Assembly (NCBI GenBank): GCA_951406725.2
Contig: OX597825.1
Coordinates: forward strand, 10,726,001 to 10,790,000
Direction of reading: 5' to 3'
Length of the DNA stretch: 64,000 bases
From: Octopus vulgaris
Taxonomy: Eukaryota
This document shows, one piece after another, positions 7,129 through 63,899 of this stretch (position 1 is its first letter; each line of letters begins with the position of its first letter). The translations under genes and the position numbers were made by a program. The notes under the pieces are model-generated. The model was given only the letters and a program-made list of their open reading frames with translations. It had not been told where the DNA came from and ran no database searches.

Positions 7129-7468
7129 CAATACAGTTCTATATTTAAGAGATGAGGAACTATTTACATTATTTACATTTGACGGATATTTGTCCTCATC
7201 TTGTTTGTTGTTAACACAACATTTTGGCTGATACACCCTCCACCATTCATCAGGTGTCTTGGGGAAATTTCAAACCTGGGTTCTCATTCCTAAGGTATTT
7301 TTCAATGTTATCATTATTATTATTCAGATCACTGCCTGGAATCGAACTCGGAATCTTGGAGTTAGTAGCCTTGCGCTTTTAACCACTATACCATATGCCC
7401 GCGGGCAATTATGGAGTGAATTTTAGAGCTACTAACCCCAAGATTCTAAGTTCGATTCCCGGCAGTGA

Positions 7469-7499
<31 letters not shown>

Positions 7500-7654
7500 G
7501 ATAATAATATTGAAAAATACCTTAGGAATGAGAACCCAGGTTCGAAATTTCCCCAAGACACCTGATGAAGGCTGGAGAATATATCAGCTGAAATGTGTTA
7601 ACAACAAACAAGATGAGGACAAATATCCGTCAAATGTAAATAATGTAAATAATG
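7129..7654. mobile_element. Palindromic (head-to-head) tRNA-headed element with hammerhead motifs, flanked by 13-bp TSD
   Basis: ~230-bp inverted arms; CAAAAAAGTGAGG at 7116-7128 and 7655-7667; tRNA-like head at the centre; hammerhead-like cores at 7213-7258(-) and 7557-7599(+). Confidence 0.85.
7557..7599 (+). ncRNA. Minimal type I hammerhead ribozyme motif (degenerate stem III)
   Basis: gacac-CTGATGA-a-ggctg..cagct-GAAA-tgtgtt. Confidence 0.55.
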
Positions 7655-8184
7655 CAAAAAAGTGAGGGTTCATATATTTGGATTGTCTTCTGCTTGGGGC
7701 TATGACTAAAGAAAGTGGTGAGCTTAGTATCTTACTGCTTGCTCTCTCTCACCAGAAAAAGGATGATAGAGTAGTTTTTATGACCAAGAAAGCCATGAAA
7801 TGAGTTTAGTATCTTACCACATAAGCCAATTGAGATAATCCCTTGTGATTAAGGAAAGCTAATTTGTTTGATCATCTGAAAATGAATGGATTAGATAGAT
7901 AGTCCAACTAGAGATGGAAGTGTAGTGTCTTCTTATTTAGCTCCAGATTAGAAAACTTACTTTGTATTAGTCTCTTGAGTGACTAGGTGTGATCTACAGT
8001 TTTGTTGTTTCAGATATGCTCTTCTCCATCTTGATCCAGTAAGGTAGCCTCAATGCAGTTGCTGGACCTGTTAGAAATATCAGCCACCGGTCCCTCAAAG
8101 TACTTACTGTTGTCCTTAAAAAACAAAGAGAAAGTTATATTGTCTAATACATTTTTAGTCTGGGTGTTCAGGGCTTGAGCAGCA

Positions 8185-29894: not shown

Positions 29895-30748
29895 ACACAT
29901 AGATACAGATTTGGTCTTCTGTGCTTGTAGACATGCAACCTCTTCTCCATCACTAAGTGTAATATTCACAATGACTATGGGGGTTTACATTTCAAAGCTT
30001 TTGATATTAACTTCTGTTACCATGGTTACAGTTATTGCTCCATAACCAGTCACTATTATATCACATTATTTTGGATCATCTTAGACACTTAGACTCTTAA
30101 TTTTATTTCACCCTTCAGCATTCACATTACTCTGTCAACTCCAATGTTCATTTATTCACATTGCTTTCAACCAATCAATTATCATCTTGTAAGCTTTTAA
30201 ATTTCGGTGATATGATTGCAGATTTTCAAAATGACATTGTAGGATAGGTGTGAGAGGCAAGACCTGGCCAGTTTGAACATAAAACAAGTAGACTATTTGG
30301 GCTGGATTTCGCCGGATTAAACCTTGATAGGCTTTGAGCAAGATTCTTAACTAATTCATATCAATTTTCATGGAAAGATACTAAGTGTCTAGTCTAGTTA
30401 GGGAAGTTAAACTATGGTAGGTAGATGTGCTTTCCAACTAGAAAATTGCTCTCTCGTTTGTTTATTGGTAAAAGTTTCAATTTGTTTAAAAAGTTGTTAA
30501 ACTCTTCTGAGCTTGTTTTGTTTTCTGTTTATTTATTTTATTCTTTTTACATTTTCAGAAATCAAAGCTGGAATTGGTGATGGACACAGTGAAGCTTGCA
30601 TCATAGATGAGAAGAAAACACTTATGAAGACCCATTGAGAGAGAAATCTGGTTCTAATTAACAGTGGACTGAGCGGATTCTGTGGATAGATTTCTTCAAG
30701 TTGTGTTCTATTCTCAATATCTCTCTATTAAGTTCAGCTAAGTCCAAA

Positions 30749-31816
30749 ATGGAAGAAGCTAGGCAATACTTCCCATTTGAAATGCTACCTGACCTTTGCA
30801 AGCAGAAGATCTTCTCTTACCTGAATGCTGTGGATAAAGGCCACTCAGCACAGGTGTGTACTAATTGGCGAGACCTCATGTCTTCGTCTGTTTGGGACAC
30901 AATTGATCTTTCATCAGACTTGGGATTCGGGTGTCTTCCGTCGGCAACCCATTCGGTGGAGGGCAAAGAGTGCCACGAATGTTACTGCAAGAGGGTTAAT
31001 GATTTCTTCATCTATCTCAACCGAATACAGCCTACCATACGTCGCTTGGATTTTTATTTTGATATCGGAGACATTAACAACAACAGCAACAACTACCTGG
31101 ACAACATCCAGCGTGGACTTATTCCATCACTCTGTAAGCACTTGCGTTATGTCCGTGTGAACTGGAAGGACTCGAGAGACCGATGGCTCGATCCGGGTCA
31201 CCAGCCAGATCAAGATGCCGTGTACAGCTACAAACTGCATCTACGACGGTTCACACATTTCTTTGAGTATTTCACAACAATTGTACCATCTCTCACCACT
31301 TTAATTCTACCATTTGATTGGAACCAAAAGACAATACAAAGCTTAACTCGGCTCAAGAGCCTTCAGTCACTAGTCTTGAAACGGGTTGTCTGTAGTCAAT
31401 CTCTGATGCAGAGCCACTTGGATCTCGTTCTCTCAGAGCTTCCGTCTTTGAAACAGTTGCTCTTAGAAGTATGGTTACCAAGTGGGGATGGACTGATTCC
31501 GTACACACTAAAATCTGATTCACTAGAAAATTTGGACATTTCCGAAAGTCATGGACTTTATCTAAATCATGTGGATATGCCTCATTTGAAAGGCATTCGT
31601 ATCGCACGTCACATTTTACATGGACCCTTAAAAACATTCAACAGATTAAATCTGCCGTGTTTGCACAGTGTACTGTCAAACGGGGCGCCAACACTCTCAA
31701 AAATTAACGATCATTATCTTCAACCTAATTGGCGCCACGAAATTTATGTGACTTTGGAAGAAGTGCTTCGGGCGGTCTGTTCTTGCCGGAACCATCTCAC
31801 TGATTTAATTGTGTGA
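30749..31816 (+). CDS. F-box protein with LRR-like C-terminal region, 355 aa, CDS in one exon
   Basis: ATG in good context (caaaATGg); F-box LPDLCKQKIFSYL...AQVCTNWRDL..SVW; LRR-like LxxLxL units (LTTLIL, LQSLVL, LKQLLL, LENLDI); acceptor ttttcAG at 30558. Confidence 0.88.
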   Translation: MEEARQYFPFEMLPDLCKQKIFSYLNAVDKGHSAQVCTNWRDLMSSSVWDTIDLSSDLGFGCLPSATHSVEGKECHECYCKRVNDFFIYLNRIQPTIRRLDFYFDIGDINNNSNNYLDNIQRGLIPSLCKHLRYVRVNWKDSRDRWLDPGHQPDQDAVYSYKLHLRRFTHFFEYFTTIVPSLTTLILPFDWNQKTIQSLTRLKSLQSLVLKRVVCSQSLMQSHLDLVLSELPSLKQLLLEVWLPSGDGLIPYTLKSDSLENLDISESHGLYLNHVDMPHLKGIRIARHILHGPLKTFNRLNLPCLHSVLSNGAPTLSKINDHYLQPNWRHEIYVTLEEVLRAVCSCRNHLTDLIV

Positions 31817-38387: not shown

Positions 38388-38625
38388 TAACATTATTTGC
38401 ATTTGATGGATATTTGTCCTCATCTTGTTTGTTATTAACACAATGCTTCGGCTGATATACCCTCCAGTATTCGTCAGGTGTCTTGGGGGAAATCTCAAAC
38501 CTGAGTTCTCATTCCTAAGGTTTTTTCCGATGTTATTATTACTATTATTCAGGTCACTGCCTGGAATCAAACTCAGAATCTTGGGGTTAGTAACCCGCGC
38601 TCTTAACCACTACACCACATACCCA
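38388..38625 (-). mobile_element. Single copy of tRNA-headed hammerhead element
   Basis: Head rc gggtatgtggtgtagtggttaagagcgcgggttactaaccc...; core rc gacac-CTGACGA-a..ctg..cagcc-GAAg at 38437-38482. Confidence 0.8.
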
Positions 38626-39844: not shown

Positions 39845-40224
39845 TTAGAGTTGTTCATGGTTGGACTCAACTATCGGTAGAGCACGTCTTACAAAACAAG
39901 CCACAAAGAAACCATTAGTTTTATCAATTTCTGATGTGAACCGTAGGCAATACTTAGAACACTGATATCCCTCTAAGCCACGGTGAGGAAAGTCTGGCAT
40001 AATTTCCTCCAGGCAATATTCCTTCTGGAACCTTTCAAAGATTGTATCGATGACTTGTTCGTTTTCTTCTGGGAAGACAGAACACGTGGAATAAACGACT
40101 CTTTTAACACCGGGGAAGCTGAGTGCATGTCTCAGTAAATTTCTCTGAATAAAATACAGTTTCTGTAAGCGGTCGCTGGTTGTAGGATTACTGTCAAGTA
40201 CATTGTCCATTCTGGAAATTATGC
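39845..40224 (-). CDS. NSUN5: NSUN5 exon 8 (last coding exon)
   Basis: IISRMDN...HALSFPGVKRVVYSTCSVFPEENEQV...PHRGL...GFFVACFVR; catalytic TC motif; acceptor tctccAG, phase 1. Confidence 0.92.
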
Positions 40225-42356
40225 CTGGAGAAAAGGAGATAGAAAACAAGATAAGATGAATTCCTCATCAATAAATGTGTTCAACCACACATTTATAAAT
40301 CATATTGGTTTAACATGATCAACACAAGTTACAGTGTCTACGAGTTAGCCCTTTACAGGGCGGCTAAATCTGATAGAAACAAGTCAAATCAGTAGTCTCT
40401 CTTGTAATTTGTCTCACCAGGAAGAGGATATCAGTTGACCCCTGCTCTAACACAAATCTGCACTACACTTGATCTAAGGAAATTTCCTTCCTAATTAGCT
40501 GTTTGAGAACTCTTTCTCTTACTGCCATAACATCATCATTTGAGTTCTTGGTTAGACATCTTGACAGGAGCTGGCAAGGACAGGGTCCACACCAGGTCCC
40601 TAAGTCAATTTTGGCTTGGTTTCTAAAGCCTGATGCCCTTCCTAATGCCAACCACCTTACAGAGTGTACTGGGTGCTTTTCACATTGTACTATCACCAGT
40701 GGTTTTCCTGTGACACCAGCACCCACACCAATGCTGTTTATGTGGCACCTTGGTTTTAGGATCCAAATTCCGTTATAATGCGTGGGTGGGGCTTCTTGAG
40801 CGCAGCAATATCGATTTTATGCTTTTTGTAGTTTCTTACTTCTAGCAACATTTGTTTCCCCCTTTAATAAGTTATTGATGAGATTGCTCTATTGCTAATC
40901 ATTTTGAATAACCCCTTCTTTTACTTCCTGATTAACAAAATCATAAACTAATGAGTATCCTTCCTTTATTAAATATTTACAACATTTCCGGGTCTGCGTC
41001 TAACCTTCATAACCTTAATAGCCATTTCCAATGTATTGCCATCAAATTCAAATAACTGATCCCTATGAAGGGTTTAATTGGGGTCCTTCCTCTTCTCCTA
41101 AGCATTCTCCTTAATCAGTACCTCTCTTAATAGCATCTCAATGCCTTTGTCTGTCAGTGAGGGCAAGTGTACCAATTCCATTAAAAACTCAATCTATTGT
41201 CAACCATAAATGAGTGTGATTTGATAAGAACGTACCACCATACCTTTGGTGATTGATTTAGGGCTCTATAGAACTGTAATCAGACAAACATACCCTTACT
41301 CTTTCCTTCCCTTCACCCAGAACACCTAGCATATGACCGCTGCACCAATATTAGCCTGGTACTCGTTTACAGGTAAGTAGATTGCTGGAATGTGAAAGGT
41401 GTCTTACTGAAGAACACGACATACTACCCAGTCAAGGAATTGAACCCTTGACCTCATGATTGTGAGCTTCATACACTAGCCATTAGTTCTCCATTAATGG
41501 AACCCTGTTTCATATTGACTTACCAGAGTTTCTCACATTACAGAACATTGGCAAACTTTTTATTTTCAATGTCTACTTCTCTCCTTGCTTAACTTAAAGT
41601 CTAACCTTCTCTTCTAGGCATGTCTGGCCCTATGCTTTCCCCACTTTCTTCCAAACTGAAATACAGATCTTTCAAGAAAAAAGTTCCATTTGTAGATCCG
41701 GTCAGAGGTTCATAACAGGTTGTCATGGAAAATCGACCTGTTGTCTTCTATGTTATAGACCTTTATCTCCTTTCAAACATATGTATCAGCTAGCACTTCT
41801 TTGAAACCCATGTCTGCTAAGCATTAAGACTGCATGTTCGCTTCAATCCAAAAATAATCCCCAAAACTATCTTAACGACAGTAACACAGAAAAATGGTGA
41901 ACACAAAGTTACAAAAGAAAATACTTACAAAATATTCACAGAGAGAAAAATATAAGGGAGGTAACTGCTTTATCGAGTTTTAACGCAAATTTTAATTTAT
42001 CTTTAATGAATTTAGACTTATAGTATAAGCCTTTTATGCTGATGTTGGCTAAATAATGTAATTTTTAACAGAAAAGTAATTAAGATAGTCATACATTCAA
42101 TGTCTTCTATTAATAAAGATCAAAAAATTTTCCAAAGAAAAACGATGAAAAGTTAAAATTTCCTAATATATAAAGATGTGTAGAGAAAGATAATTCATTT
42201 AAAACATCAGTTTTAGACAATTAAGGTAGGATTGAGCCAAAAAATAAACAAATTTTTTATACCGAATTTGAAGAGAAAAGTGAATTCCACCAGGACTTCT
42301 CTTGGAGTTTGCACAGCTAAACCCTGCATTAGCAAGTAAAATGACCCCAAAAGGTT

Positions 42357-58380: not shown

Positions 58381-58471
58381 TATCATAATTACAATTTCCA
58401 TTTAACCAGCATCATGTCTTCATAATCACAATGTCTCAAATGCAGAAATACAATTTGTCAGAGATACATAC

Positions 58472-58653
58472 CAGGTACATTTTGAATAATTTTCTCTTTT
58501 GCTTCCATTCTGATTTTCATTTTTTCCTCTTCTGTCCTTGGTGGAGATGGCTCAGCCAGAACGCCGTTGGGCCAAAGAGAGTCTTTGAATGTTTTTATGT
58601 AATAAATTAGCATCGAATCAGAGAACATCCAGTCAACAGCCATACGTAATTGT
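58472..58653 (-). CDS. SNX25: SNX25-like exon (PXC domain)
   Basis: QLRMAVDWMFSDSMLIYYIKTFKDSLWPNGVLA...RTEEEK...AKEKIIQNVP; phases 2/1 fit. Confidence 0.92.
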
Positions 58654-58852
58654 CTGAAAGATGAAATGAAAAAAAAAAATTCAAAATACCGCCTTGAAGG
58701 ATTTTAGTTGAACAAATCTTTTTTTTTCCAAAGCCTAGTTCTATCGGTCTCTTTTGCTGAACTACTAAGTTACAGGGACATAAACACACCGACACCAGTT
58801 TTCAAGCAGTGATGGGGGAACAAACACAGACACAAAGACACACACAGATACT

Positions 58853-61679: not shown

Positions 61680-62119
61680 CTGGATAAAACAAAGAACATT
61701 CAAAATTAGATTTCATTTTGTCTCTCTGAACTTGTCACGTTAATTAATCTGATAGCAATTAATATTTTCTGTATTAATCAGCTTCTTTATTTAGCTTTCT
61801 GTTTTTAGTTCCCTATTTCAGTCGCTCCAACCTCCAGTAACCTTCAACCCTTTAGCATTCAGATTGCACCAACCGATCGTGGCCGTTTGCCAGCCTCCTC
61901 TGGCCCCTGTGCCGGTGGCATGTAAAAAGCACCCTCCACACTCATGGAGTGGTTGGCGTTAGGAGGGGCATCCAGCTGTAGAAACACTGCCAGACCAGAC
62001 TGGAGCCTGGTGCAGCCTCCTGGCTTCCCAGACCCCAGTCAAACCATCCAACCCATGCTAGCATGGAAAACGGACGTTAAACGATGATGATGATGATTAT
62101 TCTATTAAATGTAGTAGTA

Positions 62120-62161
<42 letters not shown>

Positions 62162-62559
62162 TAGCAACAGCAACAGTAGTAGTGGTATGGGGATTTGCAC
62201 TGTAACAGCACATTACTACATTCACCGTTTTTTGGATTCCCTACTCCTGGTGGCTGGTGCCCCTGCATGATCCTCCAACACATGGGTCTGTTTTGGGTAC
62301 TCAATGTTGGAAAGGGTTTTGAGGTTGGTGCTGGTGGCATGTAAAAAGCACCCAGCACACTCTGTTGAGTGGTTGGCATTAGGAAGGGCATCCAGCTGAA
62401 GGAACATTGCCAGATCAGACTGGGCCTGGTGCAGCCTTCTGGCTTTCCAGACCCCGGTTGAACCGTCCAACTCATGCTAGCATGGAAAACGGACGTTAAA
62501 GGACGATGATGATGATTATTTACATTTGACGGATATTTGTCCCCATCTTGTTTGTTGTT

Positions 62560-62605
62560 AACACAACGTTTCAGCTGATATAACCTCCAGCCTTCATCAG
62601 GTGTC
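62560..62605 (-). ncRNA. Minimal type I hammerhead ribozyme motif, intact core
   Basis: rc GACAC-CTGATGA-a-GGCTG-gaggttatat-CAGCT-GAAACGTT-GTGTT. Confidence 0.72.
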
Positions 62606-62717
62606 TTGGGGAAATTTCGAACCTGGATTCTCATTCCTAAGCTATTTTTCAATGTTACTATACTACTACTACTACTACTACTATCACCACCACCACCACC
62701 ACCACCAATACCACCAG

Positions 62718-62768
<51 letters not shown>

Positions 62769-62836
62769 CACTTCTACTACTACTACTATTATTATTATTA
62801 TTCAGGTCACTGCCTGGAATTGAACTCGGCTACTAA

Positions 62837-62877
62837 CTGATGAAGGCTGGAGGGTATATCAGCCGAAACATTGTGCT
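62837..62877 (+). ncRNA. Hammerhead motif lacking the 5' strand of stem I
   Basis: CTGATGA-a-GGCTG-gagggtatat-CAGCC-GAAACATT-gtgct. Confidence 0.55.
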
Positions 62878-63449
62878 AACAACAAAACAGATGAGGACAA
62901 ATATCCGTCAAATGTAAATAATGTAAATAATGTACATAATTCCTCGTCTCTTGAATACAGAACTGTAATTAAAAACAATTTGAATGAAAAAGCATATCAC
63001 ATCATGTATTATCTCACAGCTTTGAGATTTCAATACTGTGAAAACATTACAACTCTAAAGAAGCCAGTGTTGTTCTTAAACATTTGATCAATTACCTCAG
63101 TGACAACAATTTTACTGAAGCAGAGCTGATCCTAGAGCTAAGTAACCATAACAACTGGAGCATTTATGCGTATTCTTTCAGAAACATCTTTTCACGCTAA
63201 GAGTTGCTGAAGCATGGAACAAACTGCCGGCATCAGTTGTTAGTTGTCGGAGCCCTGCATCCTTCAAAACTTTATAATATCTGTGCTGGAGAAATTGTAC
63301 ATAAATCATGTTATTCTCTTTGTACACAGAAAAATAAAGGAGATTATTTGGATATGTTTTATAGCTGATTAGCCACTTTCCAGAAGATAAGTGCCCCCTT
63401 ATTCATCTGTTTACAAAGAGATCAGAATAGCAAATACTTTTTAAATCAA

Positions 63450-63752: not shown

Positions 63753-63765
63753 ATCATGTACTCAC

Positions 63766-63899
63766 TTCCGAAACAATTTACCAAGAGAAAAGTTCCAGTT
63801 GCTTCGGTTTTGTGTCTGCTGACTGAGGAAGTCTGGTGCCGGTGAGAGGAATTCAAAGAGTGCTTCACTTTGAGCCATACGATCATCTTTCATTACAGT
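63766..63899 (-). CDS. SNX25: SNX25-like exon (end of PX domain); gene continues beyond the window
   Basis: TVMKDDRMAQSEALFEFLSPAPDFL...NFSLGKLFR, like SNX25 QSEALYAFLSPSPDYL; ttgtAG acceptor, AA|gtgagt donor. Confidence 0.9.

Follow-up and report, generated by a model that had tools for sequence, protein, structure and literature searches.

A head-to-head pair of truncated Penelope-type pLTR copies in an SNX25-like intron of Octopus vulgaris, probably from one integration event

An intron of an SNX25-like gene of Octopus vulgaris holds a palindrome with a hammerhead ribozyme motif in the sense of the gene. How did the inversion arise, and does the host make use of it? We analysed the surrounding 64,000-nt stretch of DNA (the window) together with copies of the same repeat elsewhere in the genome. 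Our preferred reading, at a probability of roughly 0.8, is that two truncated pLTR copies of a Penelope-type element (PLE) lie head to head in this intron, likely as the product of a single integration event and likely without host function. The parts of the locus, in window coordinates, are these:

62515..62829, minus strand: minus arm, a 5'-truncated Penelope-type pLTR copy without tail, starting at position 49 of the tRNA-like segment
62802..62829, minus strand: remnant (3' half) of a tRNA-derived segment, recognised from sequence, with a B-box-like motif at 62816-62827
62658..62801, minus strand: expanded trinucleotide tract, AAT/AGT/GGT on the element strand, forming the loop of the predicted hairpin
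62632..62634, minus strand: ATG whose frame continues, in partial-tandem copies at other loci, across ribozyme and tail and on into the element ORF; putative start codon
62560..62605, minus strand: minimal type I hammerhead motif, with 5-bp stem I, CUGAUGA, 5-bp stem II, GAAAC and GUU
62828..62837, plus strand: inversion junction, a 10-nt piece of the tRNA-like anticodon region (loop)
62837..62938, plus strand: plus arm, a shorter 5'-truncated pLTR copy, continuing into the tail to 62967
62939..62967, plus strand: Penelope tail, ~29 nt, on the plus arm only; ORF coding sequence in full elements
62328..62515, plus strand: unrelated short repeat adjoining the minus arm
63765-63899, minus strand: SNX25-like PX-domain exon (open frame; SNX25 PX match, E 2.7e-4), upstream of the palindrome
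58470-58655, minus strand: Nexin_C exon (Nexin_C match), downstream of the palindrome
7131..7660 (~7425): second palindrome of the window, with the tail on its minus arm only and a 13-nt target duplication

Head-to-head inverted arms had been proposed at 62516..62965 in the original prediction, and they are real: the inverted repeat comprises 62515-62600 and 62837-62922, 86 nt each, 92% complementary and 236 nt apart. The ~130-bp duplex proposed with them was too long, as only these 86 nt pair; the plus arm measures ~130 nt, but the final ~45 nt of it, the 29-nt tail among them, are left unpaired. The plus arm does start in the tRNA-like loop and then jump to CTGATGA, as had been read. The 10-nt piece at 62828-62837 corresponds to positions 30-39 of the tRNA-like segment, has 2 nt in common with the minus arm and 1 nt in common with the plus arm, and is missing from the minus arm, which begins at position 49. 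In the plus-arm hammerhead the 5' strand of stem I is missing and the cut triplet is altered. Junction comparison likewise upheld the claim that this junction is unlike the one at ~7425, so the two palindromes record separate events. No target duplication was found in the flanks of the focal insertion. The adjoining short repeat is itself abundant, with copies at 61909-62101 and 62328-62520 (both plus strand), GAT-triplet ends and many RNA reads in a related species.

SNX25-like exons lie on both sides of the palindrome, all on the minus strand, which makes the palindrome intronic and the minus-arm ribozyme sense. A further SNX25-like PX exon, also minus, is found in L091 (~33 kb beyond the window start plus 64 kb flank). 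A search for the PXA domain in this gene gave no match, and comparison of 25 candidate exons with Pfam gave no family above the cut-off. The window also contains a 384-aa open frame with an F-box domain (30662-31816, plus) and an exon matching RsmB/F methyltransferase (39845-40264, minus), which a pLTR copy at 38390-38624 adjoins.

To establish the nature of the repeat, we used 29 further loci found with the minus arm, a screen of 72 evenly spaced 10-kb stretches for upstream continuation, and loci picked on the coding sequence thus reached. Copies at L026 and L101 run upstream into RT-thumb and endonuclease-like frames. Conversely, all 30 loci picked on endonuclease-coding DNA (one being the query's own locus) run into the repeat. 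A reverse transcriptase ORF lies upstream of the endonuclease part (RVT_1, E 5.8e-8 on L184). The C-terminal part resembles GIY-YIG clusters (atlas look-alikes at 0.97, with PF01541 on 18–27% of members); a Pfam scan of the endonuclease itself returned no score, and BLASTP against another PLE family of the same genome gave nothing significant. At the other end, 20 loci were selected by the start of the ORF; in 17 of them the tail immediately precedes it, and the reading frame begins within the pLTR and passes through ribozyme and tail. L195 shows the complete layout, in which an inverted copy is followed by a partial pLTR with tail, the ORF, and a further pLTR with tail. Every copy examined is broken, and none has an intact element ORF.

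Since endonuclease-picked and ORF-start loci alike adjoin the repeat, it is the 3' end repeat (pLTR) of a Penelope-type retrotransposon encoding RT and GIY-YIG endonuclease. The original prediction did not recognise its "hammerhead element" as the terminal part of a retrotransposon that encodes proteins. The family shows the properties of endonuclease-bearing PLEs: RT, C-terminal GIY-YIG, partial-tandem pLTRs with the ORF start in pLTR and tail, a head-to-head 5'-truncated inverted copy, a 30–40 bp tail at one end and a short target duplication. From domain order, hammerhead and N-terminal motif, we take it to belong to the Penelope/Poseidon clade. The tail had been considered as an intron, which its being in frame with the ORF rules out.

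Other candidate partners were set aside. A search through PF01541 led to further PLE families, which have long open frames and lack the repeat. A broken PLE fragment at L138 with an abutting tail was dropped once the RT and endonuclease partner had been found. That fragment (L138:7500-8654) represents a third PLE-like family; an inverted tail from the family studied here is fused to its 5' break, either as a chimeric insertion from two RNAs or as a tail-only arm, and its own 3' end has a CTGAAGA...GAAAC motif. A young PLE family at L131-L139 (e.g. G000:C16:20833000-20842000) has many equal-length 781-aa frames, a second long frame upstream and a long 3' region; the studied repeat is absent from it, and a pattern search found no canonical hammerhead.

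The unusual feature of the octopus family is a tRNA-derived segment within the pLTR. The pLTR head has A-box-like and B-box-like motifs, and the family-majority head aligns best with the genome's tRNA-Arg(TCG) (z 9) among 20 distinct tRNAs that cover few anticodons. ARAGORN called no tRNA in the window or in 39 loci. With Rfam at a loose E-value, nine loci yielded nothing beyond simple-repeat noise and a single weak, unrelated tRNA match, and the head of L178 had no tRNA match in Rfam. Our literature search, which covered papers rather than repeat libraries or supplements, found none that describes a pLTR with a tRNA-derived part; the element may already be included in Repbase-type libraries and in the supplement of PMC13282606.

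Such a head invites the reading that the short form is a SINE, transcribed by Pol III and mobilised in trans by the Penelope enzyme, and not a shortened copy of the long RNA. The A- and B-box-like motifs fit it, and so do the break points: in the sets chosen without regard to the ORF, the interval -8..+10 around the tRNA start takes up 17 of 44 pLTR break points where 3.1 would be expected, and several single copies start there, closed by a target duplication. The head of a SINE should not, however, be part of the partner element, and here the tRNA-like sequence is a constant component of the coding element, directly following the ORF stop in 28 of the 30 endonuclease-picked loci. The pile-up could also result from RT stalling at the GC-rich hairpin where the tRNA-like segment starts; of the 27 unselected arms, 4 reach upstream of position -10. 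We lean against the SINE reading while regarding it as a real possibility; as regards the palindrome itself, it is compatible with our preferred explanation.

How often the repeat occurs as a palindrome was assessed in an unselected sample of 112 evenly spaced stretches (1.12 Mb of the 2.8-Gb genome). Its 19 copies comprised 7 head to head and 12 single, with none tail to tail and no tandem array; a head-to-head neighbour within 500 nt is expected by chance for 0.4% of copies (P 1e-12). Extrapolation gives ~47,500 copies (28,600–74,200) and ~17,500 palindromes (7,000–36,000) per genome. In the 29 loci selected with the minus arm, 17 of 32 clusters were head to head. Tail-to-tail adjacency appeared only in the ORF-selected set, in 3 of 75 clusters, within complex arrangements. 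Non-LTR retrozymes are non-coding tandem hammerhead units; here there is no tandem array and the unit is coding. Four apparent singles (L014, L019, L021, L103) have a tiny inverted arm of about 10–55 nt inside the target duplication, which suggests that many "single" copies are also two-armed. Separately, a different repeat repeatedly adjoins the AAT tract of the pLTR (L004, L005, L012, L223), suggesting that the tract is an insertion target.

These frequencies bear on the simplest account of the focal locus, two independent insertions that came to lie side by side by chance. The focal arms would suit it in having no shared derived changes and no target duplication. Chance adjacency at ~0.4% per copy, the lack of tail-to-tail pairs among the unselected copies, and the focal pair's obedience to the one-tail rule described below make it exceedingly unlikely.

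The anatomy of the palindromes is more informative. We collected 58, of which 35 keep both 3' ends. A tail is present on exactly one arm in 34 of these, on neither in one and on both in none (17.5 one-tailed expected, P 1e-9). Of the 35 pairs, 23 are enclosed by a flanking duplication scoring at least 8 and mostly 10–13 nt long; among 396 mismatched flank pairs such a score occurs in 0.25%. The duplication is missing, as at the focal locus, in 10. The 59 junctions divide into 24 where the arms abut and 35 with extra or unassigned bases. Microhomology was scored on the abutting ones: 16 of the 24 overlap by at least 3 nt and 13 by exactly 3, against a null of 5% (P 2e-15, or 4e-8 with all 59 as the denominator). 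At 7 of 59 junctions the two arms break off no more than 15 nt apart (4.2 under shuffled pairing, P 0.11); in the majority the breaks are far apart, often by hundreds of bases. Along the pLTR, break points are not random: besides the pile-up at the tRNA start, positions 26-33, the site noticed in the original prediction, recur in 5 of the 26 break points further downstream (P 0.002). Derived non-CpG changes are common to paired arms in 17.5% of cases, against 6.5% for unpaired arms (35 pairs; reached in 4 of 2000 permutations); the focal pair has none.

We propose that two priming events within one insertion would produce this pattern. The element's enzyme would cut both target strands with a stagger of ~12 nt, and each free 3' end would prime reverse transcription toward the 5' end of the RNA, one cDNA starting from the tail end and the other from an inner site ~30 nt upstream. 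Synthesis of both cDNAs would end prematurely, and a match of a few bases would then link them; at the focal locus the tailed cDNA would first have switched from the ribozyme into the tRNA-like loop. Two-site priming accounts for the outward 3' ends, the duplication, the one-tail rule and the uncoupled break points. At the focal locus, where there is no target duplication, the single-event origin rests on the family pattern. The changes shared by paired arms suggest one RNA template for both cDNAs; they also fit fold-back copying or gene conversion.

Biochemistry on the Poseidon protein, so far as the accessible text of PMC11167929 describes it, agrees in that both strands are cut and extended and that two RT start sites bound the tail. 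According to the same text the start site was alike on both strands in vitro, and with no strand difference there, that work does not explain the strict one-tail rule.

The main competing origin is a fold-back, in which the inverted arm is made by self-priming on a single template, as proposed for Penelope elements of Adineta in PMC3846280. In its favour, paired arms have more derived changes in common than chance would give, the commonest 5' end coincides with a small hairpin, both breaks lie close together at a few junctions, and two ORF junctions do resemble fold-backs. Self-priming nevertheless predicts coupled break points, and their closeness does not exceed that of shuffled pairs, so it fits a minority of junctions. 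Nor is the shorter arm a simple mirror of the longer arm's end: the focal minus arm lacks the piece 30-39. The one-tail rule, the 3-nt microhomology and the uncoupled break points fit two priming events better, and we consider a fold-back origin improbable. The original prediction that the inversion comes from the replication mechanism thus holds, in the form of the element's own integration, which is already a published PLE property; neither random break points nor a pair frequency at chance level was found.

Does the host use the motif? The minus-arm core is intact at 62560-62605 and on the strand of the SNX25-like gene, as predicted, and it has the CUGANGA and GAAA core with stems I and II of a minimal type I hammerhead that lacks helix III. 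The predicted cut falls between 62565 and 62564, at a GUU site, and there is no helix III loop. Rfam at its gathering score found no hammerhead in the window. The focal core had been called the best preserved, which is true among the copies of this window only; family-wide, core and stems are kept in 43 of 116 sampled copies covering the motif, and in stem II the pair adjoining the core is G-U at the focal copy but G-C in most copies. Conservation among copies is 94.3% for core bases and 94.0% for the remaining non-CpG bases; the copies thus show no selection on the hammerhead. Minimal hammerheads without helix III act as dimers, and the focal locus has a single sense copy.

An adopted switch, with self-cleavage of the intron held in check when the antisense arm covers the ribozyme and with editing adjusting the balance, would draw on the intact core on the transcribed strand and on a predicted hairpin in which the antisense arm pairs with 40 of 46 ribozyme bases. 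As a folding prediction the proposed masking stands, over ~86 bp; the antisense arm is transcribed before the ribozyme arm on the gene strand, and the intronic hammerhead would be paired with it. Yet any intronic palindrome has one sense arm by construction, and thousands of like loci are estimated. Helix III is lacking, the site is GUU, stem II has its G-U pair, and the core is no better kept than other bases. PMC6155905 describes, in the portion available, the minimal hammerhead form for PLEs, and the Anolis (Poseidon) ribozyme cut only with the element's protein in the corresponding part of PMC11167929. RNA reads from a related species cover the repeat on both strands and leave the unique flank uncovered, so they are not locus-specific and bear on neither editing nor cleavage here; they have no listed end at the predicted cut site, and their base differences also occur in a large contig set. 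The self-cleavage proposed for the intron is not supported: cleavage of the SNX25 transcript by the focal motif is unlikely, and an adopted switch very unlikely. That the hairpin attracts editing is plausible. The best explanation is that the hammerhead belongs to the transposon's own cycle, and the focal locus is ordinary: real, explained and one of many.

Much of the architecture is known. Inverted pLTRs, one-sided tails, target duplications and microhomology have already been described, on the evidence of the available parts of PMC3846280 and PMC8557442. The latter lists for PLE insertions generally the 5' truncation, partial tandems and adjacent inverted 5'-truncated copy, often with a tail at one end, that we see; its Naiad/Chlamys elements, with N-terminal endonuclease and no canonical hammerhead, are unlike the octopus element. 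Pen2/Pen2a of Adineta vaga, according to PMC3846280, have a pLTR with a TATA/Inr-like promoter and few copies, whereas the octopus pLTR has a tRNA-derived segment and an estimated tens of thousands of copies, and the self-priming proposed there fits octopus break points poorly. Poseidon_Ac of Anolis carolinensis, from the accessible text of PMC11167929, is similar: its hammerhead overlaps the start of the ORF, a C-terminal GIY-YIG follows the RT, the tail lies between two RT start sites, and both target strands are cut and extended. Its ORF starts at stem II, against ~35 nt upstream of the core in the octopus element; that text reports no tRNA-derived part and does not analyse inverted products.

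Metazoan non-LTR retrozymes share the type I hammerhead and the PLE link, but in the portions available of PMC7229834 and bioRxiv 10.64898/2026.07.22.740005 they are non-coding tandem arrays, whereas the octopus repeat is dispersed, inverted and part of a coding element. Cassandra, Helenus and Ajax likewise have a tRNA-like sequence inside the terminal repeat of a retroelement; these are non-autonomous LTR elements (PMC10886601), and the octopus pLTR belongs to a Penelope element. The octopus OR and OK SINEs also have a tRNA-derived head but are SINEs, a likeness drawn from description and not from sequence identity. They were reportedly described by Ohshima and Okada in 1994, the OR families being said to be of tRNA-Arg origin.

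In genome annotation, short pLTR copies of this kind can readily be mistaken for SINEs or for ribozyme switches belonging to the host. How PLE inverted ends form is an open question according to the available text of PMC8557442, and the copy statistics here discriminate fold-back from two-site priming; they are modest evidence on Penelope integration and yield a bench prediction. A wider scheme, which we offer as speculative and rather doubtful, is that an autonomous Penelope element with its own tRNA-type Pol III promoter in the pLTR sheds a short SINE-like RNA, and that its tens of thousands of inverted insertions arise by asymmetric twin priming on one RNA, one strand starting at the tail and the other at the inner site. 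If true, it would settle the origin of head-to-head copies in Penelope, and the family would have seeded thousands of intronic dsRNA substrates for editing.
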